Part shown: positions 6,381 through 45,003 of the stretch, piece by piece
Layout: each line of letters opens with the position of its first letter
Numbering within the stretch: position 1 is the stretch's first letter
Assembly: GCF_044324875.1 (NCBI RefSeq)
Contig: NZ_CP172185.1
Length of the DNA stretch: 64,000 bases
Reading direction: 5' to 3' (one strand)
Origin: Escherichia coli
GTDB taxonomy: Bacteria; Pseudomonadota; Gammaproteobacteria; Enterobacterales; Enterobacteriaceae
Notes under the pieces: generated by a model
Told to the model about the DNA's origin: nothing
The model's input: only the letters and a program-made list of their open reading frames with translations
Databases searched by the model: none
Program-made: the position numbers and the translations under genes

Positions 6381-7817
6381 ATGTCAAACAACATTCGTAT
6401 CGAAGAAGATCTGTTGGGTACCAGGGAAGTTCCAGCTGATGCCTACTATGGTGTTCACACTCTGAGAGCGATTGAAAACTTCTATATCAGCAACAACAAA
6501 ATCAGTGATATTCCTGAATTTGTTCGCGGTATGGTAATGGTTAAAAAAGCCGCAGCTATGGCAAACAAAGAGCTGCAAACCATTCCTAAAAGTGTAGCGA
6601 ATGCCATCATTGCCGCATGTGATGAAGTCCTGAACAACGGAAAATGCATGGATCAGTTCCCGGTAGACGTCTACCAGGGCGGCGCAGGTACTTCCGTAAA
6701 CATGAACACCAACGAAGTGCTGGCCAATATCGGTCTGGAACTGATGGGTCACCAGAAAGGTGAATATCAGTACCTGAACCCGAACGACCATGTTAACAAA
6801 TGTCAGTCCACTAACGACGCCTACCCGACCGGTTTCCGTATCGCAGTTTACTCTTCCCTGATTAAGCTGGTAGATGCGATTAACCAACTGCGTGAAGGCT
6901 TTGAACGTAAAGCTGTCGAATTCCAGGACATCCTGAAAATGGGTCGTACCCAGCTGCAGGACGCAGTACCGATGACCCTCGGTCAGGAATTCCGCGCTTT
7001 CAGCATCCTGCTGAAAGAAGAAGTGAAAAACATCCAACGTACCGCTGAACTGCTGCTGGAAGTTAACCTTGGCGCAACAGCAATCGGTACTGGTCTGAAC
7101 ACGCCGAAAGAGTACTCTCCGCTGGCAGTGAAAAAACTGGCTGAAGTCACTGGCTTCCCATGCGTACCGGCTGAAGACCTGATCGAAGCGACCTCTGACT
7201 GCGGCGCTTATGTAATGGTTCACGGCGCGCTGAAACGCCTGGCTGTGAAGATGTCCAAAATCTGTAACGACCTGCGCTTGCTCTCTTCTGGCCCACGTGC
7301 CGGCCTGAACGAGATCAACCTGCCGGAACTGCAGGCGGGCTCTTCCATCATGCCAGCTAAAGTAAACCCGGTTGTTCCGGAAGTGGTTAACCAGGTATGC
7401 TTCAAAGTCATCGGTAACGACACCACTGTTACCATGGCAGCAGAAGCAGGTCAGCTGCAGTTGAACGTTATGGAGCCGGTCATTGGCCAGGCCATGTTTG
7501 AATCCGTTCACATTCTGACCAACGCTTGCTACAACCTGCTGGAAAAATGCATTAACGGCATCACTGCTAACAAAGAAGTGTGCGAAGGTTACGTTTACAA
7601 CTCTATCGGTATCGTTACTTACTTGAACCCGTTCATCGGTCACCACAACGGTGACATCGTGGGTAAAATCTGTGCCGAAACCGGTAAGAGTGTACGTGAA
7701 GTCGTTCTGGAACGCGGTCTGTTGACTGAAGCGGAACTTGACGATATTTTCTCCGTACAGAATCTGATGCACCCGGCTTACAAAGCAAAACGCTATACTG
7801 ATGAAAGCGAACAGTAA
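6381..7817 (+). CDS. aspA: Aspartate ammonia-lyase
   Basis: ORF 6336..7817; start at [30 protein letters not shown]; fumarase/aspartase family signature [11 protein letters not shown]. Confidence 0.95.
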
Positions 7818-7842
7818 TCGTACAGGGTAGTACAAATAGAGA

Positions 7843-7870
7843 AGGCACGTCAGATGACGTGCCTTTTTTC
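7843..7870 (+). terminator. Intrinsic terminator after aspA
   Basis: AGGCACGTC-agat-GACGTGCCT stem-loop followed by TTTTTT. Confidence 0.6.
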
Positions 7871-7934
7871 TTGTGAGCAGTAACTTAAAAATAACAATCT
7901 AATATCAACTTGTTAAAAAACAAGGAAGGCTAAT

Positions 7935-9236
7935 ATGCTAGTTGTAGAACTCATCATAGTTTTGCTGGCGATCTTCTTGGGCGCCAGATTGGGGGGAATA
8001 GGTATTGGTTTTGCAGGCGGATTGGGGGTGCTGGTTCTTGCCGCTATTGGCGTTAAACCCGGTAACATCCCGTTCGATGTCATTTCCATTATCATGGCGG
8101 TTATCGCCGCTATTTCTGCCATGCAGGTTGCTGGCGGTCTGGACTATCTGGTTCATCAGACAGAAAAGCTGCTGCGCCGTAACCCGAAATACATCACGAT
8201 CCTCGCACCGATCGTGACCTATTTCCTGACAATCTTTGCTGGTACTGGCAACATCTCTCTGGCGACACTGCCAGTTATCGCTGAAGTTGCGAAGGAACAA
8301 GGCGTTAAACCTTGCCGTCCGCTGTCTACTGCAGTGGTATCCGCGCAGATTGCGATCACCGCATCGCCAATCTCAGCAGCAGTGGTTTACATGTCTTCCG
8401 TGATGGAAGGTCATGGCATCAGCTACCTCCATCTGCTCTCCGTGGTCATCCCGTCCACCCTGCTGGCGGTTCTGGTGATGTCCTTCCTGGTCACTATGCT
8501 GTTCAACTCCAAACTCTCTGACGATCCGATTTATCGCAAGCGTCTGGAAGAAGGCCTGGTTGAACTGCGCGGTGAAAAGCAGATTGAAATCAAATCCGGT
8601 GCAAAAACGTCCGTCTGGCTATTCCTGCTGGGCGTAGTTGGCGTGGTTATCTATGCAATCATCAACAGCCCAAGCATGGGTCTGGTTGAAAAACCGCTGA
8701 TGAACACCACCAACGCAATCCTGATCATCATGCTCAGCGTTGCAACTCTGACCACCGTTATCTGTAAAGTCGATACCGACAACATCCTCAACTCCAGCAC
8801 CTTCAAAGCAGGTATGAGCGCCTGTATTTGTATCCTGGGTGTTGCGTGGCTGGGCGATACTTTCGTTTCCAACAACATCGACTGGATCAAAGATACCGCT
8901 GGTGAAGTGATTCAGGGTCATCCGTGGCTGCTGGCCGTCATCTTCTTCTTTGCTTCTGCTCTGCTGTACTCTCAGGCTGCAACCGCAAAAGCACTGATGC
9001 CGATGGCTCTGGCACTGAACGTTTCTCCGCTGACCGCTGTTGCTTCTTTCGCTGCGGTGTCTGGTCTGTTCATTCTGCCGACCTACCCGACGCTGGTTGC
9101 TGCGGTACAGATGGATGACACGGGTACTACCCGTATCGGTAAATTCGTCTTCAACCATCCGTTCTTCATCCCGGGTACTCTGGGTGTTGCCCTGGCCGTT
9201 TGCTTCGGCTTCGTGCTGGGTAGCTTCATGCTGTAA
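7935..9236 (+). CDS. dcuA: Anaerobic C4-dicarboxylate transporter DcuA
   Basis: 433 aa polytopic membrane protein; directly downstream of aspA as in E. coli. Confidence 0.9.
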   Translation: MLVVELIIVLLAIFLGARLGGIGIGFAGGLGVLVLAAIGVKPGNIPFDVISIIMAVIAAISAMQVAGGLDYLVHQTEKLLRRNPKYITILAPIVTYFLTIFAGTGNISLATLPVIAEVAKEQGVKPCRPLSTAVVSAQIAITASPISAAVVYMSSVMEGHGISYLHLLSVVIPSTLLAVLVMSFLVTMLFNSKLSDDPIYRKRLEEGLVELRGEKQIEIKSGAKTSVWLFLLGVVGVVIYAIINSPSMGLVEKPLMNTTNAILIIMLSVATLTTVICKVDTDNILNSSTFKAGMSACICILGVAWLGDTFVSNNIDWIKDTAGEVIQGHPWLLAVIFFFASALLYSQAATAKALMPMALALNVSPLTAVASFAAVSGLFILPTYPTLVAAVQMDDTGTTRIGKFVFNHPFFIPGTLGVALAVCFGFVLGSFML

Positions 9237-12081: not shown

Positions 12082-12157
12082 GCCCGGATAGCTCAGTCGG
12101 TAGAGCAGGGGATTGAAAATCCCCGTGTCCTTGGTTCGATTCCGAGTCCGGGCACCA
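12082..12157 (+). tRNA. pheU: tRNA-Phe (anticodon GAA)
   Basis: GCCCGGATAGCTCAGTCGGTAGAGCAGGGGATTGAAAATCCCCGTGTCCTTGGTTCGATTCCGAGTCCGGGCACCA; cloverleaf with GAA anticodon loop; pheU assigned from yjdC neighbourhood (sequence identical to pheV). Confidence 0.95.
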
Positions 12158-12354: not shown

Positions 12355-13617
12355 ATGGCACTGACTGACGCAAAAATCCGGGCTGCAAAGCACACTGACA
12401 AGGCTTATAAACTCACTGACGGGGCTGGCATGTTCCTGCTGGTACATCCTAATGGTTCCCGTTACTGGCGTCTCCGTTATCGCATTCTGGGTAAGGAGAA
12501 AACTCTGGCACTTGGTGTATACCCGGAGGTTTCTCTCTCCGAAGCTCGTACAAAACGGGATGAGGCCCGAAAACTGATTTCGGAGGGGATTGACCCTTGC
12601 GAACAGAAAAGAGCTAAAAAAGTAGTCCCTGATTTACAACTCTCTTTTGAACATATTGCACGACGCTGGCATGCCAGTAATAAACAATGGGCACAATCAC
12701 ACAGCGATAAGGTACTCAAAAGCCTCGAAACACACGTTTTCCCCTTTATCGGCAACCGGAACATCACAACACTCAATACCCCGGACCTGCTTATCCCTGT
12801 TCGTGCTGCAGAAGCTAAACAAATTTATGAAATCGCCAGTCGTCTGCAGCAAAGAATATCTGCTGTAATGCGTTATGCCGTACAGTCTGGCATCATCAGA
12901 TATAATCCTGCTCTGGATATGGCTGGCGCATTGACCTCTGTAAAACGACAGCATCGCCCCGCTCTTGATCTTTCACGTCTGCCTGAACTTCTGTCGCGTA
13001 TTAACAGTTATAAAGGTCAGCCTGTCACCCGGCTTGCTGTTATGCTGAATTTACTGGTTTTTATTCGCTCCAGTGAACTCAGATATGCCCGCTGGGCTGA
13101 AATTGATATTGACAATTCAATGTGGACTATTCCAGCCGAACGCAAACCTCTGCCAGGGGTAAAATTCTCACACCGGGGCTCCAAGATGCGAACACCACAT
13201 CTTGTGCCACTCAGCAAACAGGCTGTAGCCATACTGACAGAACTTCAGACATGGGCTGGTGAAAATGGTCTGATCTTTACGGGAGCACATGACCCGCGTA
13301 AACCAATCAGTGAAAATACCGTAAATAAGGCCCTCAGAGTGATGGGGTATGACACAACCAAGGAAGTCTGTGGCCATGGATTCCGGGCGATGGCGTGCAG
13401 TGCATTGATTGAATCAGGTTTGTGGTCCCGCGATGCTGTGGAACGTCAGATGAGCCATCAGGAGCGTAATGGTGTACGTGCTGCGTATATCCATAAAGCA
13501 GAACATCTGGAAGAACGTCGACTGATGCTACAGTGGTGGGCAGATTTTCTGGATGCGAACAGAGATAAGGGTATCAGCCCGTTTGAATATGCAAAGATTA
13601 ACAATCCATTAAAATAG
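12355..13617 (+). CDS. int: P4-type tyrosine integrase (island integrase adjacent to tRNA-Phe)
   Basis: 420 aa; MALTDAKIRAAKHTDKAYKLTDGAGMFLLVHPNGSRYWRLRYRILGKEKTLALGVYPEVSLSEARTKRDEARKL typical of P4-like integrase N-terminus; C-terminal catalytic region with HGFRA; located ~200 bp after tRNA. Confidence 0.9.
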   Translation: MALTDAKIRAAKHTDKAYKLTDGAGMFLLVHPNGSRYWRLRYRILGKEKTLALGVYPEVSLSEARTKRDEARKLISEGIDPCEQKRAKKVVPDLQLSFEHIARRWHASNKQWAQSHSDKVLKSLETHVFPFIGNRNITTLNTPDLLIPVRAAEAKQIYEIASRLQQRISAVMRYAVQSGIIRYNPALDMAGALTSVKRQHRPALDLSRLPELLSRINSYKGQPVTRLAVMLNLLVFIRSSELRYARWAEIDIDNSMWTIPAERKPLPGVKFSHRGSKMRTPHLVPLSKQAVAILTELQTWAGENGLIFTGAHDPRKPISENTVNKALRVMGYDTTKEVCGHGFRAMACSALIESGLWSRDAVERQMSHQERNGVRAAYIHKAEHLEERRLMLQWWADFLDANRDKGISPFEYAKINNPLK

Positions 13618-13620
13618 TAA

Positions 13621-13650
13621 GCAGTCCGGGCTGATTGCCCGGACTGCTTT
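13621..13650 (+). terminator. Hairpin after integrase gene
   Basis: GCAGTCCGGGC-tgatt-GCCCGGACTGC followed by TTT. Confidence 0.5.
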
Positions 13651-14068
13651 AACTGATTATTTTTCTTTGTAAATGATGACGAAGATTGATGTTCTGGCAA
13701 GTTACTCCGGCTTCCATTAAAGTCCCTTCGTCATGTTCTTCAGGCTATTTATGACTGTGATTAGCACCAGGAATATCTGGTTTCCATGAGAGCAGGTAAT
13801 AACCCCCGGTGTTTTCGGCTGTTCTGGTATCCTTGTCCAACGCAGGCAGTCATTATAAACGGTAAAAAATGTATTCACTGTTATGAAATCAATAGTCCTG
13901 ACGTACTGTTGAATGTGCTTGCGTTCTGAACCTTGTACAACCAGTACATTTGATACCGAATTATAAGCAAAACATTGCATCCAACTTTTTCAATATGGAC
14001 AATAGTTGTCCATATGGTGGTTTTATATTCGATAAATCAATGGATTTCATTGAGTCATAGGACTGGTA

Positions 14069-17000
14069 ATGGATGAAAATGCTTTAGGGTTTGCCTCATA
14101 CTGGCGCAACTCGCTTGCGGACGCTGAGTCAGGAAAGGGCAGTTTTGAACGGAAAGACGCCAAAAATTTCACTCACTGGCATGGGATAGCGGCGGGACGT
14201 CTTGACGAAGCGATTGTCAGTAAATTTTTTAAGGGAGAAAAAGACGATGTCGAAACGGTCGATGTCATCTTGCGCCCAAAAGTTTATTTCCGGTTACTGC
14301 AGCATGGTAAGGACCGTTCTGCAGGTGCGCCTGATATTGTTACCCCGATAGTGACGCCAGCCTTGCTAAGCCGTGAGGGTTTTTTATATCCGACGCCAGC
14401 GACCTCCATTCCCAGAGACCTGCTTGAACCTTTGCCAAAAGGAGCATTTTCGATTGGTGAGATTGGGCAGTATGACAAATACAAGACGACCCATACCACG
14501 TTCTCTATCAACTTTGATGACAGCGTTGATAAGACTGCCGAAACGGATGAAGAACGGGAAGAACGATATGCAGCCTTGCAGCAGGAGTGGCGTCAATATC
14601 TGGATGATTCAGAGAGGCTGCTGAAGAACGTTGCCGGCGACTGGATTAAAAATCCTGAGCAATATGAACTCGCTGAGCACGGTTATATTGTTAAAACGGC
14701 GCAATCTGGCGGTGCCAGTTTCCATATCCTTTCTCTTTATGATCACCTGCTTGTTTGCAATAAGGATGTGCCGCTCTTCAATCGATTCGCCTCGCGAGAG
14801 GTTCATGCTGCAGAGTCTTTGCTGGCCCCTGGAGCAAAATTCAGCGACAGGCTTGGACACTCCGGAGATAAGTTTCCGCTGGCAAAGGCTCAGCGCGATG
14901 CCTTAAGCCATTTTCTGGATGCTAAACATGGCGATATCCTTGCTGTTAATGGCCCTCCTGGAACCGGAAAAACCACGCTGGTGCTTTCTATCATCGCCAC
15001 GCAGTGGGCCAGAGCGGCTCTCGAAAAATCTGAGCCTCCGGTTATTATCGCGACTTCAACGAATAACCAGGCTGTAACGAACATTATTGAGGCATTCGGG
15101 AAAGACTTTTCGCAAGGTTCAGGTGCGATGGCCGGGCGATGGTTGCCAGAGCTGAAAAGCTTCGGCGCTTATTTTCCCTCAGGCAGCCGTAAAGCTGAAG
15201 CAGCCAAAAAATATCAAACTGAAGATTTCTTCAACCAGGTTGAGTCAAAAGAGTATGTAGAAGATGCACTGCTGTTTTATCTGGAAAAGGCTAAGGCAGC
15301 CTTTCCTGAAAAAGAGTGTTCATCCCCTGAAAAGGTCATTGAACTCCTGCATGGTCAGTTGGCAGCAAAATCCGAGCAACTGATAAGACTGAACGCAACA
15401 TGGCAAAAGTTAAGCCAGATTCGGGCTGCGCGTGAGCTTATTGCTAATGATATTGAGCAATATCTCAATAATTTAAATAAATTACTTTCCGGACAAGAAC
15501 AAAAAATCACTCTACTGAAGAGTGCTAAAACGGAATGGAAAAAATATCGCGCCGGTGAATCACTGATCTATTCATTATTTTCCTGGCTTCCGGCGGTTCG
15601 CAGTAAGCGACAGTACCAAATACAGCTGTTTCTCGAAGATAAATTAGGTGCGCTGATTGCAGGAAATCAATGGTCTGATCCTGAAACTATCGAACGTAAT
15701 ATTGATGGGCTGCTCAATTCCGCTGAGCGCGAGCAAACAACATACCGGCAGCAGATTGACTCCGCCCATGAAATCATTCTTAAAGAACAGCAGGCGGTTC
15801 AGGAGTGGCAGAGACTGGCTCTTGATTTAGGGTATGAGGGCGACGAGGAACTGAGCTTCTCACAGGCCGATGAACTGGCTGATACGCAGATTCGCTTCCC
15901 TGCATTTTTACTGACGACTCACTACTGGGAAGGTCGTTGGCTGATGGATATGGCCAGCATTGATGATCTGCAGGAAGAGAAGAAGAAAAAAGGCGCTAAA
16001 GGGGTAACCGCCCGTTGGCAACGTCGAATGAAACTCACTCCATGTGTGGTGATGACATGCTATATGCTGCCCGGCAATATGCAGATAAGTGAGCACAAAG
16101 GACAGCGTAAATTCGAGAAAAGTTATTTGTATGATTTTGCCGATTTACTCATTGTCGATGAAGCCGGGCAGGTGCTTCCTGAAGTGGCTGCTGCCTCGTT
16201 TGCATTAGCTAAGAAGGCATTAGTGATTGGCGATACGGAGCAGATCCCGCCAATATGGAGTATTGCTCCTGCGATTGATATCGGTAACATGCTGGCGGAA
16301 AAAATTCTGTCTGGCAGTACGCAAGAAGAGATTACCGAGAAATATACGGCAATCGCAGACCTTGGTAAAAGTGCCGCATCTGGCAGCGTTATGAAAATAG
16401 CGCAGTTTGCTTCGCGCTATCAATATGATCCCGAACTGGCTCGTGGTATGTACCTATATGAACACCGCCGGTGCTACGACAATATTATTGGATACTGTAA
16501 TACGCTCTGCTATCACGGTAAGTTGTTGCCTAAAAGAGGGCGTGAAGAGAGCAATTTAATGCCCGCAATGGGGTATCTCCATATTGATGGTAAAGGAGAG
16601 CTGGCAAGTAGTGGAAGTCGATATAATTTGCTTGAGGCTGAAACGATAGCGGTCTGGTTGGCAGAGAACCAGCAAAATATTGAAGCGCATTACGGTAAAT
16701 CGCTTCATGAAGTTGTCGGTATTGTGACGCCTTTTAGCGCTCAGGTATCCACTATCAAACAGGTGCTGGGCAAACAAGGTATCAGTACAGGCACGAATGA
16801 AAAGTCGCTCACAGTGGGCACCGTGCACTCTCTTCAGGGAGCGGAAAGAGCGATTGTGATATTCTCGCCAGTCTATTCAAAACATGAAGACGGCGGGTTT
16901 ATTGATAGCGATAACAGCATGCTGAATGTTGCAGTCTCCCGTGCGAAGGACAGTTTTCTGGTCTTCGGCGATATGGACCTGTTTGAGGTCCAGCCAGCCT

Positions 17001-17584
17001 CATCGCCACGGGGATTACTGGCAAAATACCTCTTTGAGTCAGAGAAGAATGCGCTCTCTTTTGATTATAAAGAGCGTAAGGATTTAAAAACCGCCGGGAC
17101 CAAAATCTACACACTTCATGGTGTGGAGCAACATGATAATTTCCTGAATCAGACATTTGAAAATACCAGTAAACACATCACGATAGTTTCTCCATGGCTG
17201 ACCTGGCAAAGGCTGGAGCAAACCGGTTTTCTTGATTCCATGATTGCGGCGTGTTCACGTGGAATTAACGTCACGATAGTCACTGACAGAAGCTACAACA
17301 CTGAACATAATGATTTTGAGAAGCGAAAAGAGAAGCAGCAGAACTTTAAAGCGGCGCTGGAGAAACTGAATGCGCTGGGTATTGCTACAAAGCTGGTAAA
17401 CCGTGTTCATAGCAAAATTGTTATTGGTGATGATGGTTTGCTGTGCGTGGGATCGTTCAACTGGTTTAGTGCGACACGGGAAGCGCGATATGAACGATAC
17501 GATACATCAATGGTTTATTGCGGTGATAACCTGAAGGGTGAGATTGAGGCTATTTATAATAGTCTTGAGAGGCGGCAGGTTTAG
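14069..17584 (+). CDS. Large fusion protein: unknown N-terminal domain + Upf1-like SF1 helicase core + C-terminal PLD-family (single HKD) nuclease domain; candidate defence protein
   Basis: 1171 aa; Walker A GPPGTGKT (~aa 295), Walker B/motif [11 protein letters not shown] (~aa 695), motif V-like [11 protein letters not shown], motif VI-like VAVSRAKD, then HSKIVIGDD (HxK(x)4D) near aa 1114; first cargo gene after island integrase. Confidence 0.9.
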
Positions 17585-17600
17585 AGCAGGAATGGTGAGT

Positions 17601-17637
17601 AGCCATCTTACCGATCGTTTTCGAGCGTAAGATGGCT
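17601..17637. other. 11-bp inverted repeat hairpin between convergent genes (possible bidirectional terminator)
   Basis: AGCCATCTTAC ...15 nt... GTAAGATGGCT between stop of helicase-PLD gene and stop of minus-strand sulfatase-family gene. Confidence 0.35.
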
Positions 17638-17692
17638 GAATGGAATGGCTATTATTGCACAGTCCTTAATTATAACATTCATACCGACATGA

Positions 17693-19192
17693 TTATCTTC
17701 TGCCCGGAAGAATCAGAGGCTGTGGTTTCAGACTGTCTGCCGGTACATTCCTGTCTCCGTTAAAAACAATAACGGGTTCATTATCTTCGTCTGTCAGCGG
17801 ATTGAATGGCGGTATATTTTCAGTACGAATGCCGGTCAGCCACTGAAAAATACCTGCGAAATGACGGGCACTGATTTTTCTGCTGACGGACTGATGAGAC
17901 GTGATGTCACTGGCGGTAATAATCAGGGGAACGCTGTAGCCTCCTTGTATATGGCCATCATGATGAACAGGATTAGCACTGTCGCTGACCGACAGACCAT
18001 GGTCAGAAAAGTAAAGCATGGCAAAATGACGGGAGTGCCGGCGAAGGATACCATCAAGCTGACCGAGAAAGTTATCCAGTTTACTGATGCTGGCGAGGTA
18101 ACAGGCAATCTTTCGGGGATACTGCTCCAGGTAATGATTCGGCCAGGAGTTAAGTCGGTCACACGGATTCGGATGAGAGCCAATCATGTGCAGGAATATC
18201 ACCTTCGGAGAGGATTTATCCGCCAGTGCACGTTCTGTTTCCTGTAACAACAACATGTCATCCGTTTTACGGGAAGCAAAGCTGCCTTTCTTGAGGAAAA
18301 CGGTATGCTCCGCATCAGAAGCAATAACAGAGATGCGTGTATCATGCTCCCCCAGTTTTCCCTGATTGGATATCCACCATGTGCTGTATCCTGCTTTTGC
18401 TGCCAGCGCCACCACGTTGTTGCCGGAGTCAGGGTTCTGCTCATAGTCATAAATCAGTGTCCGGCTCAGGGAAGGTACGGTACTGGCTGCTGCCGATGTA
18501 TAGCCGTCAATAAATAAACCGGGAGCCGTATTCAGCCATGGTGTGGTTGGCACGGGATAGCCATATACCGACATATAATCCCTGCGCACACTCTCACCAG
18601 TAACGATAACAATCGTGTCATACAACGGTGTTCCCGGCAGGATTTTCCAGTTGTCAGCCCCGTGCTGACTCAGTTGTTTATAACGCTGCATTTCACGCAA
18701 TGTGTCAGTTGTTCCCACAACAATTCCTTTAACCATCCGCAACGGCCAGCTGTTTACAGAGCATAATACGAACAGCAGCAGTGCCAGCCAGTTACGGTGA
18801 CCGCGGTGGTGTGTCCGCCAGAAAATCACCATGAATACCAGAATCGCGGCACTGACCAGAAAATGATAAACAGGAATCATCCCGGTAAACTCTGCAGCCT
18901 CATCAGCCGTGGTCTGCAGCAACGCGACAATAAAACTGTTGTTGATTTTACCGTACGTCATACCCGCAGGCGCATACAGTGCACAACAGAACAGAAATAA
19001 CAGCGTTGTAATGGATGTGAGGGTATTTCTGTGTGCAAGGAGCAGAAGGAGAAACAGAAGCAGCACATTTCCTGTGGCATTCTTCTCAGTGTATCCGCAT
19101 GCAATTGTGGTTATCACAGAAATAACAAAAAAGAATAAAAACAATAAAATCCGGGGTGTGTCGCCCGGACAAAACAGTTTTCTGATATTCAT
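17693..19192 (-). CDS. Sulfatase-family integral membrane enzyme (phosphoethanolamine-transferase-like)
   Basis: 499 aa; hydrophobic N-terminal TM region followed by soluble domain with HMIGSHPNPCDRL-type motif typical of alkaline-phosphatase/sulfatase superfamily transferases. Confidence 0.55.
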   Translation of the reverse strand: MNIRKLFCPGDTPRILLFLFFFVISVITTIACGYTEKNATGNVLLLFLLLLLAHRNTLTSITTLLFLFCCALYAPAGMTYGKINNSFIVALLQTTADEAAEFTGMIPVYHFLVSAAILVFMVIFWRTHHRGHRNWLALLLFVLCSVNSWPLRMVKGIVVGTTDTLREMQRYKQLSQHGADNWKILPGTPLYDTIVIVTGESVRRDYMSVYGYPVPTTPWLNTAPGLFIDGYTSAAASTVPSLSRTLIYDYEQNPDSGNNVVALAAKAGYSTWWISNQGKLGEHDTRISVIASDAEHTVFLKKGSFASRKTDDMLLLQETERALADKSSPKVIFLHMIGSHPNPCDRLNSWPNHYLEQYPRKIACYLASISKLDNFLGQLDGILRRHSRHFAMLYFSDHGLSVSDSANPVHHDGHIQGGYSVPLIITASDITSHQSVSRKISARHFAGIFQWLTGIRTENIPPFNPLTDEDNEPVIVFNGDRNVPADSLKPQPLILPGRR

Positions 19193-19373
19193 CGGAGTAT
19201 ATCGACAACATTATTATGAAGAGAACAGGATAATAAAAATCAGAAATTATCTGTAAAACAGATAACAGACAACCCTGCAGCAATAGACTGCAGGGTGTTT
19301 CTGTTTAATTGCAGAAGATATACAATTATATTAATTACAGAATATTCGTGATTATCTCTCGGGAACAGTGTTG

Positions 19374-20114
19374 TCAGAAGTTATAAGTCACACCAAGCAT
19401 GATGTCATGACTTTTAACATCAACTTCTGACTTATATTTATCGCCCCACTCGTCCTTGTAACTCACACTGCTGTCACCTGCATCAAGATAGCGATAGCTG
19501 AGGTCCAGAGCGATATCCGGGGTTACGTCATAGCGGACACCCGCGCCAAGGTTCCATGCGAAGTTGTCAGCAGAGCCTGAACGTGACAACGATTCGCGAC
19601 CACTGCTTCCGTACTCATAATCCCAGGTACTGATACCGGTTGTTTTCTGGTGAATTCTGGCGTAGCCAATCCCTGCAGATATCCAAGGTGTGAATGCGCT
19701 GTCATTCCGGAAGTCATAGTACGCATTCAGCATTAGTGTGTTGACTGACACCTCATTCTTCAGGTCATCACGCCAGTAACCACCTGACCAACTGTCTTTA
19801 TCTACGTTATACTTCGAATCAGCTTTTCCACGAGCGTAAAACTCCAGTTCTGTACGAACCGGAATACTGAACTGCGGATAAAAATCATAACCAGCCGCGA
19901 TACCACCACTGAATACCGTATCATGGTCATCGCCGCCTTTATACTTTGACGTTTCTTCCTCATCTCCTGACAGGAAACGCTGGTCTGAAAGTGACACCAC
20001 AGAGGTACCGGCTTTACCGGTCAGATAAAAACCGCTTTTACCTTCCTCAGCACCTGCATTTGCTGCAAATACACAGGCTGCGGCCACCACTGAAACAGCA
20101 AAAACCTTTTTCAT
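19374..20114 (-). CDS. Outer-membrane beta-barrel protein (OmpA-like transmembrane barrel family)
   Basis: 246 aa; signal peptide MKKVFAVSVVAAACVFAANA; alternating aromatic/hydrophobic strands; C-terminal ...GVTYNF terminal Phe. Confidence 0.6.
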   Translation of the reverse strand: MKKVFAVSVVAAACVFAANAGAEEGKSGFYLTGKAGTSVVSLSDQRFLSGDEEETSKYKGGDDHDTVFSGGIAAGYDFYPQFSIPVRTELEFYARGKADSKYNVDKDSWSGGYWRDDLKNEVSVNTLMLNAYYDFRNDSAFTPWISAGIGYARIHQKTTGISTWDYEYGSSGRESLSRSGSADNFAWNLGAGVRYDVTPDIALDLSYRYLDAGDSSVSYKDEWGDKYKSEVDVKSHDIMLGVTYNF

Positions 20115-43032: not shown

Positions 43033-45003
43033 TTACCACTGATAACGGGTATAAAGACTGACAGTTCGGCCTGAAAGCGGCACACCTTTGCCATTCATGG
43101 CAAGCTTGTTGAAGGCATTATCCAGAGTTACTGACGCCTCAAAGCCTTTAACACTTACAGGCTTATAAGACAGTGAAAAGGAATGTATGGCATAGCCAGC
43201 CTGATAGGAGTCGCCTTTTTTCACATGCGTGGCTGATGCTGAAAGTTCAGCACGCCATCCGGCATAAACGCCTCTATGACCAACAGGTATGCTGATGTCA
43301 CTGATAAGTGTGTCAGGATTGCCGGAGCCCAGCCATTCCCTGCTGCTGGCATCCATACTTTCCGTCCGGTTATAAGAAAGCACCCAGTCAACATAATCAG
43401 ACTGGTAATTTCCCTGCATATCCCATCCCCAGATACGGGCCCGGGATACATTATAAGAATAAGAACGCATCCGTTTCATATCCACGCGTGTGGCAATATA
43501 GTTTCTGGCATCCGTTCCGAAATATCCGCCTTTTAACTGCAGCCGGTCATTGTCTGTAAGCAGGCCATCCAGTTGAATACCTGCGCCAATCTCACGGGTG
43601 ATGTTATTTTCTGGTTTCAGATTAAGGTTAGGAACCCAGTAATTGGGTTTACCCTTGCGGTAAAAATGTACATCATCCCTGTACATTTCTGCCATTGTGG
43701 GCGCTCGGAATGCAGAGGATATGGAGCCGTACATCATCAGCCAGTCTGTCGGTGAGACTGAAATCGCCGCCCTTGGGGACAGGCGTTCGGCTTTCAGTTC
43801 TCCGGCACGGGGATTGAAGCTCTTGTACCGGTCATAGCGGGAACCGACGATAATGTTAACAGGGTAGCTTTTCATTGTCATTTCATCCTGGAAATACAAC
43901 GATGTAAAGTCAATATTTCCTTCCGGATATAGTGTGGCAGAGCCTTCTGGCTTCTGCTGCTGACGGTAATATTCAGCGCCATAACTTAACTGATGGGCTC
44001 CCGGAAAAATCAGAGTATGACTCCTGTTGACAACATTAACACCGGAGGTTCTGTTGTTTCTCCATTCTGCCGTTTTGTTGTGACCGTTTGTCTTGATAGT
44101 GATATCACTGAGATATAACGTTGACTGTACATTGATGAGGCTGTTATCCACAGGAGCGTACTGGTACCAGAACTGTACGTCATTTTGTACTGTTTTTCTG
44201 TCACGCAGGCCGCTGTCACCATGTGTCTGAGTGGGATTGCCCGGTTCAGTGGTGTTATTCCGGTAGAGACGCAAGCTGGCACCTGCTTTGTTACTGTCTG
44301 TTATACCGACAGAGCCTTTCGCAAACAGGGCTGCAGGTTTTTCCTTGTTAGGTGCGCGCTCACCATCACTTTGATAGATATTACCTCTTTTACGCATAAT
44401 GACAGAAAGGAGCGCATCTGTTTTTCCGGTTTTACCGAACCAGGTGAGCCCCGAGCCTGTGCTGTGGTCACCACTGGCAATATTTCCCCACAGACTTAAA
44501 CCGTTTGTCTCTCCGGGGGGAAGGAAATCTGCTGCATCGGCAGTTCTGAAGTCCACTACACCTCCCAGCCCGCCACTGCCGTACAGACTGGAGTTTGGCC
44601 CGCGGACAACTTCGATACGTTTGACAAGAGCCGGATCCAGATAAGTGCCACTGCTTTTTGCCATGTCACTAAGTTGGCGGACGCCGTCAACAAGAACAAG
44701 TACCCCGCTTTTGTCATAGCCGCGTAGATTAAAGGTCTGCCCATTGGTCCGTCCTGCACCAGTCTGGCTGAGACCGGCAACACCTTTCAGCATGCCGGCC
44801 GATGTAACCGCATTCTGACTCCACGGTGTGTCATTCGTGACGACACTGACCATCGACGGCGTTTCAAATACCGTGTTCTGATTTCCTGTCGCGACAATGG
44901 TGATTGTATCTTTAGCCATAGAAGAATGACTGGTCGCTGCCTGTAGTCCCACCGGGACTATAATTAATGTACAAATGACAGTTCTGATTACATTCATATA
45001 CAT
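43033..45003 (-). CDS. TonB-dependent outer-membrane receptor
   Basis: 656 aa; signal peptide; plug-domain TonB-box-like region DTITIVATGNQ; C-terminal ...TRYQW terminal aromatic. Confidence 0.8.
   Translation of the reverse strand: MYMNVIRTVICTLIIVPVGLQAATSHSSMAKDTITIVATGNQNTVFETPSMVSVVTNDTPWSQNAVTSAGMLKGVAGLSQTGAGRTNGQTFNLRGYDKSGVLVLVDGVRQLSDMAKSSGTYLDPALVKRIEVVRGPNSSLYGSGGLGGVVDFRTADAADFLPPGETNGLSLWGNIASGDHSTGSGLTWFGKTGKTDALLSVIMRKRGNIYQSDGERAPNKEKPAALFAKGSVGITDSNKAGASLRLYRNNTTEPGNPTQTHGDSGLRDRKTVQNDVQFWYQYAPVDNSLINVQSTLYLSDITIKTNGHNKTAEWRNNRTSGVNVVNRSHTLIFPGAHQLSYGAEYYRQQQKPEGSATLYPEGNIDFTSLYFQDEMTMKSYPVNIIVGSRYDRYKSFNPRAGELKAERLSPRAAISVSPTDWLMMYGSISSAFRAPTMAEMYRDDVHFYRKGKPNYWVPNLNLKPENNITREIGAGIQLDGLLTDNDRLQLKGGYFGTDARNYIATRVDMKRMRSYSYNVSRARIWGWDMQGNYQSDYVDWVLSYNRTESMDASSREWLGSGNPDTLISDISIPVGHRGVYAGWRAELSASATHVKKGDSYQAGYAIHSFSLSYKPVSVKGFEASVTLDNAFNKLAMNGKGVPLSGRTVSLYTRYQW

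Follow-up and report, generated by a model that had tools for sequence, protein, structure and literature searches.

The first gene downstream of the integrase of a genomic island in Escherichia coli encodes a protein of 1171 aa, which joins a helicase to a C-terminal nuclease domain and is labelled merely 'AAA domain-containing protein' in RefSeq. Its position raises the question of whether it represents a known anti-phage defence system, a new architecture or a helicase of some other family, and on which nucleic acid its product would act. The stretch of DNA analysed here, referred to as the window, comprises 64,000 nt of contig NZ_CP172185.1. The gene is very probably mkoC, whose single protein constitutes the Mokosh type II anti-phage system and which is located first after the integrase of the pheU island. 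It is an ordinary copy of a known system, described earlier in E. coli, and is not new.

Identity and island setting of the gene

The gene, whose product carries the RefSeq accession WP_021572001.1, was identified as an intact ORF starting with ATG, for which position 14069 represents the first possible start, with an in-frame stop at position 14051. Comparison with the PADLOC MkoC profile yielded a single, uninterrupted match covering residues 1-1169 of the protein and positions 1-1135 of the 1136 in the profile (E=0, 1694.1 bits), and the assignment to Mokosh type II, which the sequence-only reading had proposed tentatively, is borne out by this full-length match. The PADLOC profiles of MkoA and MkoB, conversely, cover only the helicase and PLD parts that they share with the deduced protein. 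An SF1 helicase and a C-terminal HKD-type PLD domain are encoded within one polypeptide by a single gene, i.e. one fused ORF as opposed to the two genes of Mokosh type I. The same reading had kept a new architecture in reserve in case homology failed, a fallback that does not hold, as the system has already been named, counted in E. coli and biochemically characterised.

Several other identities were considered and rejected. Scores against RecD (24.9 bits versus a cut-off of 310) and RecD2 (26.5 bits versus a cut-off of 500) were far too low for either family; domain searches returned no relaxase family and scores for a relaxase/TraA identity were far below the family cut-offs, so that the placement among RecD, TraA or relaxase proteins that would have spoken against a defence role did not materialise. 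Scores for housekeeping RNA-decay helicases were likewise far below the family cut-offs, and the MkoC profile accounts for the whole protein. An origin from a phage or plasmid was also dismissed, as the E. coli copies are all chromosomal and apparent 'phage' matches correspond to tiny unannotated contigs or to distant helicases.

The tRNA-Phe gene at the start of the island was identified as pheU because it is preceded by the gene order dcuA-cutA-dsbD-dicD/yjdC; it was the sole match in an Rfam search. The integrase follows, for which identical loci carry the RefSeq label 'tyrosine-type recombinase/integrase', and mkoC is the next gene. On its 3' side, a phosphoethanolamine transferase gene in convergent orientation and an outer membrane protein gene are located, with PhoX also among the neighbours. 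A PADLOC search of these neighbours (integrase, phosphoethanolamine transferase, outer membrane protein and PhoX) returned no matches, in agreement with the earlier description of a lone gene directly after the integrase. Its single-gene status is further supported by the lack of a separate MkoA or MkoB gene or a partner defence gene at the locus, and by the presence of other neighbours elsewhere. A second copy of the tRNA 3' end (attR) was not found within the window, indicating that the far end of the island lies outside it. The coordinates of all features are listed in Table 1.

Table 1. Features of the mkoC locus, in window coordinates
Feature	Position (nt)	Strand	Residues	Basis or remark
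tRNA-Phe (pheU)	12082..12157	+		ARAGORN; Rfam tRNA 68.3 bits; island attachment site, outside the defence system
Island tyrosine recombinase/integrase, 420 aa	12355..13617	+		NCBIfam PRK09692 integrase domain, E=4e-74; context
DNA travelling with mkoC, likely promoter/regulatory	13925..14068	+		Alignment of four contexts
Perfect 10-3-10 palindrome, ATATGGACAATAGTTGTCCATAT	13993-14015			Within upstream region of mkoC
mkoC, single gene of Mokosh type II, 1171 aa, 131.5 kDa	14069..17584	+		PADLOC MkoC PDLC03924
N-terminal domain specific to the MkoC family	14069..14854	+	1-262	
Helicase RecA1, first part	14876..15118	+	~270-350	Pfam AAA_11 (272-492), AAA_30
Walker A, GPPGTGKT	14951-14974	+	295-302	
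Motif Ia, TSTNNQA	15053-15073	+		
Large all-helical insertion between motifs Ia and II	15221..16033	+	~385-655 (approximate bounds)	DSSP on AF2 model
Helicase RecA1, second part	16034..16273	+	~656-735	Pfam AAA_11 (679-729)
Walker B/motif II, DEAGQ	16157-16171	+	697-701	
Motif III, GDTEQ	16229-16243	+		
Helicase RecA2	16397..16993	+	~777-975	Pfam AAA_12 (777-969), E=2e-21
RecA2 helicase motif, 11 residues	16817-16849	+	917-927	
Helicase motif VAVSRAKD	16928-16951	+	954-961	
C-terminal PLD-family nuclease domain	17096..17581	+	~1010-1171	Pfam PLDc_2 (1028-1138, E=1e-9), PLDc
Complete HxK(x)4D(x)6GSxN motif	17408-17461	+	H1114-N1131	

Domain architecture and relation to known proteins

The protein consists of four parts, i.e. 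an N-terminal domain confined to the family, a helicase core of the Upf1-like SF1B type in which the ATPase and nucleic-acid motifs are all intact, a large helical insertion within this core and a C-terminal PLD domain. The five motifs quoted by the sequence-only reading for this ORF were all found where it had placed them, and its two domain assignments, an Upf1-like SF1 helicase and a single C-terminal HKD motif of the Nuc/Zucchini type, were corroborated by Pfam (AAA_11/AAA_12 and PLDc_2, respectively) as well as by the structural and profile comparisons below.

The AlphaFold2 model of the protein is confident (pLDDT 92.9, pTM 0.88), and its top Foldseek matches in the PDB were SETX, Upf1, IGHMBP2, Aquarius, Sen1 and DNA2, each of them an SF1B helicase of the Upf1-like group with bound ssRNA or ssDNA. 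These matches were strong (E=1e-15 to 1e-10, probability 1.00), while sequence identity was only 11-14%; in a phmmer search against the PDB, matches to SETX, Upf1 and DNA2 fell in the RecA2 region. Two RecA domains with motifs I, Ia, II, III, V and VI are present in an Upf1-type fold. The insertion that interrupts the first of these domains was shown to contain long helices at residues 394-411, 420-458, 462-495, 508-530, 538-586 and 597-630 (DSSP). For the N-terminal domain (residues 1-262), the PDB contains no fold relative.

In the PLD domain, HSKIVIGD(D) at residues 1114-1122 represents the only HxK(x)4D sequence of the protein. PADLOC matches of this domain were to MkoB (7.6e-17) and DrmC (1.6e-6), and a profile of the C-terminal family searched against the PDB matched Nuc (1byr, 3e-6), NucT (6ehi, 4e-4) and PLD6/Zucchini (4ggj, 1e-3). 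The family profile was used in place of a single-sequence phmmer search, the top matches of which were designed 'Bagel' propeller repeats, a spurious result caused by a short, multiply repeated motif.

Across 67 homologues with 30-51% identity, Walker A, motif II, Q923, R958 and the PLD residues H1114, K1116, D1121, G1128, S1129 and N1131 are invariant or nearly so. This includes each position of Walker A (G295, P296, P297, G298, T299, G300, K301 and T302), and conserved positions in the second part of RecA1 are D697, E698, A699, G700, Q701, G721, D722 and Q725. In an alignment of the N-terminal domain, D18, F54, G104, R116, L119, P121, W174 and Y224 were invariant, although D18 and F54 vary in the full-length set of 67 sequences.

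Mokosh type II and its protein MkoC were reportedly first described by Millman et al. in 2022. The protein encoded in the window shares with MkoC of EcMokosh II the domain order (N-terminal domain, SF1 helicase and PLD), the species and the single-gene organisation, and no difference was detectable when the two were compared by profile, length and mass (1171 aa and 131.5 kDa against 132 kDa expected). The equal length and mass, together with 95-100% identity among nearly all E. coli copies, suggest that the allele in the window corresponds closely to the E. coli MkoC that was studied experimentally. Mokosh type I consists of two genes, and homology is confined to the RecA domains of MkoA (E=3.5e-36 over residues 692-974 of the window protein, with partial matching up to residue 994) and the PLD domain of MkoB (E=7.6e-17, residues 1011-1138). 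MkoA (1112-1607 profile positions) and MkoB (610) possess extra regions, whereas the N-terminal domain and the helical insertion of MkoC have no match in either protein. A literature search on MkoA and MkoB found no paper dedicated to their mechanism. The two types are also directed against different phages, T-even-like ones in the case of type I and an ssDNA phage in that of type II (type II: bioRxiv 10.1101/2025.07.10.664194).

Beyond Mokosh, the helicase fold and motif set are shared with Upf1, senataxin/Sen1, IGHMBP2, MOV10L1 and DNA2, yet these Upf1-like SF1B helicases lack both the PLD fusion and the MkoC N-terminal domain and function in eukaryotic RNA/DNA metabolism rather than in defence. 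Similarly, each chain of Nuc (1byr), NucT (6ehi) and Zucchini/PLD6 (4ggj) contains a single HxK(x)4D(x)6GSxN motif, as does MkoC, but these enzymes are small, stand-alone, obligate homodimers, whereas in MkoC the domain forms the end of a 131-kDa helicase reported to be a monomer. A further relative is the K-12 pseudogene yjhR (b4308), located in the KpLE2 element near leuX, of which 338 aa align to MkoC residues 834-1171 with 67% identity, including HSKIVI.D and GSFNWFSA. It belongs to another MkoC lineage, which has diverged, and survives as a truncated remnant, as opposed to the full-length copy in the window, and was taken as a 'fused Mokosh' by Cury et al. (bioRxiv 10.1101/2022.12.12.520048).

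Distribution, conservation and upstream DNA

The mkoC gene is carried by 888 of 5426 complete E. coli genomes, and a protein identical to that encoded in the window occurs on at least 998 contigs; a published survey counted 975 occurrences of Mokosh II in E. coli (bioRxiv 10.1101/2022.08.21.504612). Alleles differ by up to ~5% in DNA, with dN/dS values of 0.14-0.19 between E. coli alleles, indicative of purifying selection. In a library of 1.84 billion proteins, 12979 homologues were detected at E<=0.001 and 1141 at E<=1e-30, many being full length among the best 150 listed. Given these homologue numbers and dN/dS values, the ORF is far beyond what chance would produce.

The usual setting of mkoC is a module composed of integrase, MkoC, phosphoethanolamine transferase and outer membrane protein genes at pheU, pheV or leuX. 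In strain DG343-1, the gene is located away from any integrase, among genes for HNH endonucleases, a restriction endonuclease, a TIR protein and a type I R-M system. Alignment of the upstream DNA from four contexts (pheU twice, leuX and the defence island of strain DG343-1) revealed that similarity to the unrelated context sets in ~140 bp upstream of the start codon and is almost perfect from ~13968 onwards. Because this region accompanies mkoC into unrelated genomic contexts, it likely represents the promoter/regulatory region of the gene.

Activity, proposed mechanism and alternative readings

Purified EcMokosh II (MkoC) was reported to be a monomer, with ~138 kDa measured by mass photometry against 132 kDa expected, and to cleave only ssDNA in vitro, while plasmid was nicked and all dsDNA targets remained uncut (bioRxiv 10.1101/2025.07.10.664194). 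In the same study, Walker A/B mutants retained cleavage in vitro, and defence in cells was observed only against the ssDNA phage SECphi17. As the published protein is monomeric in solution, a Nuc-like dimer would be at most transient and induced by substrate.

In the mechanism that we propose, MkoC would idle as a monomer with half a PLD active site, until exposed phage nucleic acid in long single-stranded form, for instance an ssDNA genome that is entering the cell or undergoing rolling-circle replication, recruits its helicase module. By analogy with its Upf1-like relatives, the helicase may translocate in the 5' to 3' direction, and HKD motifs could then be united, either because several molecules load or because the conformation changes; substrate-induced dimerisation would be a possible route and conflicts with none of the observations. 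The PLD domain would subsequently cut the strand, thereby stopping phage replication; for the N-terminal domain, the probable role is to confer specificity or to hold the enzyme back from host nucleic acid. If the ATPase motifs are dispensable for cleavage, as they are in vitro, the role of the helicase is left unaccounted for, which speaks against this explanation.

Since the published substrate panel (bioRxiv 10.1101/2025.07.10.664194) contains no RNA, the physiological target could be RNA. It would then be phage RNA, i.e. transcripts or RNA-DNA hybrids, that is attacked in the cell, with ssDNA cutting in vitro as a side activity and with an Upf1/MOV10L1-like helicase supplying a Zucchini-like nuclease with RNA, in the manner of the animal piRNA pathway. 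Among solved helicases, the closest are those acting on RNA (SETX-ssRNA, Upf1-RNA and IGHMBP2-RNA), the PLD profile matches Zucchini/PLD6, an ssRNA nuclease, and Mokosh has been linked to MOV10L1 and PLD6 (Cury et al., bioRxiv 10.1101/2022.12.12.520048). However, the fold matches also include the DNA enzyme DNA2, the DNA/RNA nucleases Nuc and NucT outscore PLD6 in the PLD profile search, purified MkoC does cut ssDNA and the sole phage restricted has an ssDNA genome; an RNA target is considered unlikely. Many helicase-nuclease defence systems act by abortive infection, and a triggered MkoC could accordingly degrade single-stranded nucleic acid of both host and phage and kill or arrest the cell, as its PLD nuclease cut the published substrates without sequence specificity and nicked plasmid DNA. 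Nevertheless, dsDNA, host DNA included, is left uncut by MkoC, and the literature covered yielded no data on toxicity, growth arrest or survival for Mokosh II, rendering this outcome decidedly improbable.

A role that is not primarily anti-phage would have mkoC serve the island itself, through DNA processing during excision or transfer, or exclude competing elements that transfer ssDNA, such as conjugative plasmids. Such a role would explain the fixed place of the gene beside the integrase at pheU, pheV and leuX, in a module conserved at all three tRNA sites; an ssDNA-specific nuclease could in principle encounter conjugative ssDNA, and MkoC homologues are present on large plasmids of Vibrio, Agrobacterium, Pseudomonas and Arsenophonus. 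It is regarded as very improbable, however, given that relaxase, RecD and TraA signatures are absent (see the RecD2 score above), that mkoC also occurs without an integrase inside a classical defence island and that phage protection has been published for the MkoC family.

The preferred reading, an ssDNA-directed defence nuclease, may be extended to a general sensor-effector for long ssDNA that enters or arises in the cell, which, in addition to Microviridae, would restrict filamentous phages and incoming conjugative or rolling-circle plasmids. At least two monomers on one strand would complete a composite HKD site, the N-terminal domain would act as a gate that spares ssDNA of host replication and repair, and PLD-less relatives located beside other putative effectors (e.g. 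an ART-PolyVal gene) would represent effector-swapped sensors. This extension is speculative and, on balance, rather doubtful.

The locus in the window matters little alone; hundreds of near-identical copies of this named defence system exist. Its practical value lies in correct annotation: in many pathogenicity islands at pheU, pheV and leuX in extraintestinal and avian E. coli, the gene that immediately follows the integrase serves in phage defence.

Identification of the gene as mkoC

Compared with the PADLOC MkoC profile PDLC03924, the protein was matched in one stretch (E = 0, 1694 bits) spanning residues 1–1169 and profile positions 1–1135 of 1136; the gene is mkoC of Mokosh type II. Conversely, the Mokosh type I proteins resemble MkoC solely in the shared helicase part (MkoA, residues 692–994) and in the PLD part (MkoB, residues 1011–1138). 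Pfam AAA_11 (residues 272–492 and 679–729), AAA_12 (residues 777–969, E = 2e-21) and PLDc_2 (residues 1028–1138, E = 1e-9) were all found; the sequence-only reading had named these families for its check. None of the NCBIfam models claimed the protein, and RecD and RecD2 reached 25–27 bits against cut-offs of 310–500, which eliminates the relaxase/RecD identity named there as an alternative.

The 1171-aa frame and every motif quoted for it were confirmed in full from the ORF list, the translation and a script search. Owing to an in-frame stop at 14051, the ATG at 14069 is the earliest possible start. The protein has a calculated mass of 131.5 kDa. The HxK(x)4D pattern occurs once in the whole protein, in agreement with the single C-terminal HKD motif described. 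Both the description and the tentative Mokosh type II identification were right.

Features of the window and of the MkoC protein
Feature	Position	Strand	Remark
tRNA-Phe	12082–12157	+	only tRNA in window
Tyrosine recombinase	12355–13617	+	after tRNA-Phe; mkoC is next gene
87-aa ORF	13717–13980	-	ATG start; between integrase and mkoC
ATATGGACAATAGTTGTCCATAT	13993–14015		perfect 10-3-10 palindrome, 54 bp upstream of mkoC start
mkoC	14069–17584	+	long frame in ORF list, ATG start, 1171 aa
GPPGTGKT	MkoC residues 295–302		located by script in translation
DEAGQ	MkoC residues 697–701		located by script
11-residue motif quoted in the sequence-only reading	MkoC residues 917–927		located by script
VAVSRAKD	MkoC residues 954–961		located by script
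HSKIVIGD	MkoC residues 1114–1121		located by script; sole HxK(x)4D
TonB-dependent haem receptor	43033–45003	-
YadA-like autotransporter	59160–60473	-
Split transketolase	61646–63422	-

Predicted structure, conservation and relatives

An AlphaFold2 model, built on an alignment of 67 MkoC relatives (30–51% identity), was confident (mean pLDDT 92.9, pTM 0.88). Its top Foldseek matches in the PDB were exclusively Upf1-like SF1B helicases (E = 2e-15 to 1e-10), i.e. senataxin with ssRNA, Upf1, IGHMBP2, Aquarius, Sen1, DNA2, ZNFX1 and nidovirus nsp13, indicative of a shared helicase fold and, together with AAA_11 and AAA_12, in line with the earlier Upf1-like call. In the model, motifs Ia and II are separated by a helical insertion of ~270 residues. 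A profile built for the C-terminal 172 residues matched Nuc (1byr, 3e-6), a bacterial phospholipase (7e0m), NucT (6ehi, 4e-4) and mouse PLD6/Zucchini (4ggj, 1e-3), a profile-level similarity that bears out the proposed Nuc/Zucchini type. A PDB sequence search returned no MkoC structure. Residues 1–262 matched no Pfam family and no PDB sequence; modelled separately, they gave a confident structure (pLDDT 87.9) with AFDB50 matches limited to other MkoC-like proteins, and constitute a family-specific domain.

Across the 67-relative alignment, Walker A, motif II, Q923 and R958, the PLD signature (H1114, K1116, D1121, G1128, S1129 and N1131) and N-terminal Y11, W12, R13, D18, G104, R116, P121, W174 and Y224 were (nearly) invariant. 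Among 1.84 billion representative proteins, 12979 relatives were detected at E≤0.001, with 1141 reaching E≤1e-30. Within the top 150 of the 12979, many have ~1150–1190 aa and the same end-to-end architecture. Large Arsenophonus, Pseudomonas syringae, Vibrio and Agrobacterium plasmids encode homologues (40–57% identity). Matches in the phage collection (including OR851096.1, OR850961.1 and MT837470.1) were small unannotated contigs or distant helicases. MkoC fragments with 94–95% identity lie on two 2.9–4.1 kb contigs labelled ‘Salmonella phage S.Kent 1-2-1’, which resemble host DNA present in a phage preparation; a relative of nearly full length (32% identity) is encoded on a 6.8-kb ‘Bacteriophage sp.’ contig.

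About ten 50%-identity clusters of relatives end at query residue ~996, comprising the N-terminal domain and helicase without PLD (relatives P0149, P0156, P0158, P0159, P0162, P0166, P0168, P0222 and P0229; comparison loci L007 and L008). In L007, an 899-aa gene without assigned function and a PF18760 ART-PolyVal gene precede the relative and an ISL3 insertion follows it; in L008, the gene after the relative encodes a protein of 683 aa that matches no Pfam family. Such relatives could have arisen through exchange of the effector or, in the case of L007, because the IS element truncated the gene. In contrast to the full-length MkoC of the window, the K-12 pseudogene yjhR (b4308; 7016–8032 of comparison locus L006) is a 338-aa C-terminal remnant, 67% identical to MkoC residues 834–1171, with intact HKD and GSFNW motifs; judged by sequence, it represents the C-terminal end of a second MkoC lineage. 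Cury et al. (bioRxiv 10.1101/2022.12.12.520048) took K-12 YjhR as a fused Mokosh example.

Genomic context and distribution

The tRNA-Phe gene is preceded by dcuA, cutA, dsbD and dicD/yjdC, which identifies it as pheU, and mkoC directly follows the island integrase, as previously noted. The other window ORFs tested had no PADLOC match; mkoC thus stands alone, as type II requires and as the reported lack of partner genes implied. The 87-aa ORF had no NCBIfam match and is unannotated in RefSeq copies; its DNA is kept across tRNA-island contexts and missing from that of strain DG343-1, and it is probably not a gene. In DG343-1, mkoC lies amid HNH endonucleases, a restriction endonuclease, a TIR protein and a type I R-M system, accompanied by only ~140 bp of upstream DNA, which include the palindrome. 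In other alleles, single changes occur in the half-sites of this palindrome, which may act as an operator or belong to the promoter.

A module of integrase, MkoC, phosphoethanolamine transferase and outer membrane protein is repeated at several tRNA sites: pheU (window, strain 135 and strain AR_0013, locus L004), pheV (strain PK8261, L001) and leuX (UTI89, L003). In the window this four-gene head spans 12355–20114, with a Tia/Hek-like outer membrane protein; it opens islands at three tRNA genes, with variable cargo behind (pap fimbriae, S6 autotransporter, IS elements). The remainder of the island (24000–64000) is a mosaic with IS3/IS2 and IS66 elements, a GPH-family symporter, a UgpB-like binding protein and a glucose-type PTS IIBC with ManNAc-6-P epimerase. 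Its segment 26000–34000 has an unusually high G+C for E. coli (0.53–0.63), is annotated in RefSeq with a beta-strand repeat protein, carbohydrate porin, YbgA family protein and xylA, and occurs at ≥80% coverage in only five complete E. coli genomes out of 5426; base composition probably accounts for the long ORFs on both of its strands. The tRNA 3′ end is not repeated anywhere in the window, so the island ends beyond it.

In total, 888 of the 5426 genomes carry mkoC, chromosomally in every case, with ≥95% DNA identity for 883 of the 888 copies. Allele differences are mainly synonymous (dN/dS 0.14–0.19), and the exact protein (RefSeq WP_021572001.1, ‘AAA domain-containing protein’) is encoded by 998 or more contigs in the public collection. 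Wu et al. (bioRxiv 10.1101/2022.08.21.504612) counted 975 Mokosh II systems in E. coli, 882 of them alongside type IV restriction.

Proposed mechanism

With the identity, domain structure and catalytic motifs of MkoC established here, its mode of action can be outlined by analogy. Nuc and Zucchini use a dimer for activity; to become active, the lone HKD motif of MkoC would require either another HKD copy or a shift in conformation, and the N-terminal domain would gate this activation. Like its Upf1-like relatives, the helicase module would recognise, then track along, long exposed single strands.

A PLD-like domain is entered for Mokosh types I and II in a domain survey, sourced to Millman et al. 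2022. In a 2025 preprint (bioRxiv 10.1101/2025.07.10.664194), purified EcMokosh II (EcMkoC) was a monomer (mass photometry gave ~138 kDa against an expected 132 kDa) that cut ssDNA substrates only and nicked plasmid, cleavage was unchanged by Walker A/B mutations, and protection was limited to the ssDNA phage SECphi17. RNA is a possible real target; Mokosh has been related to the piRNA-pathway proteins MOV10L1 and PLD6 (Cury et al., bioRxiv 10.1101/2022.12.12.520048). Alternatively, MkoC may work by abortive infection. It is unlikely to serve the biology of the island. In an expression study, Mokosh type II levels were similar between E. coli strains and, in one strain, correlated with growth markers. 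Mokosh still figures among incompletely characterised systems in a 2026 review. As a system, Mokosh type II is already known and common, and this particular locus is of low interest in itself.
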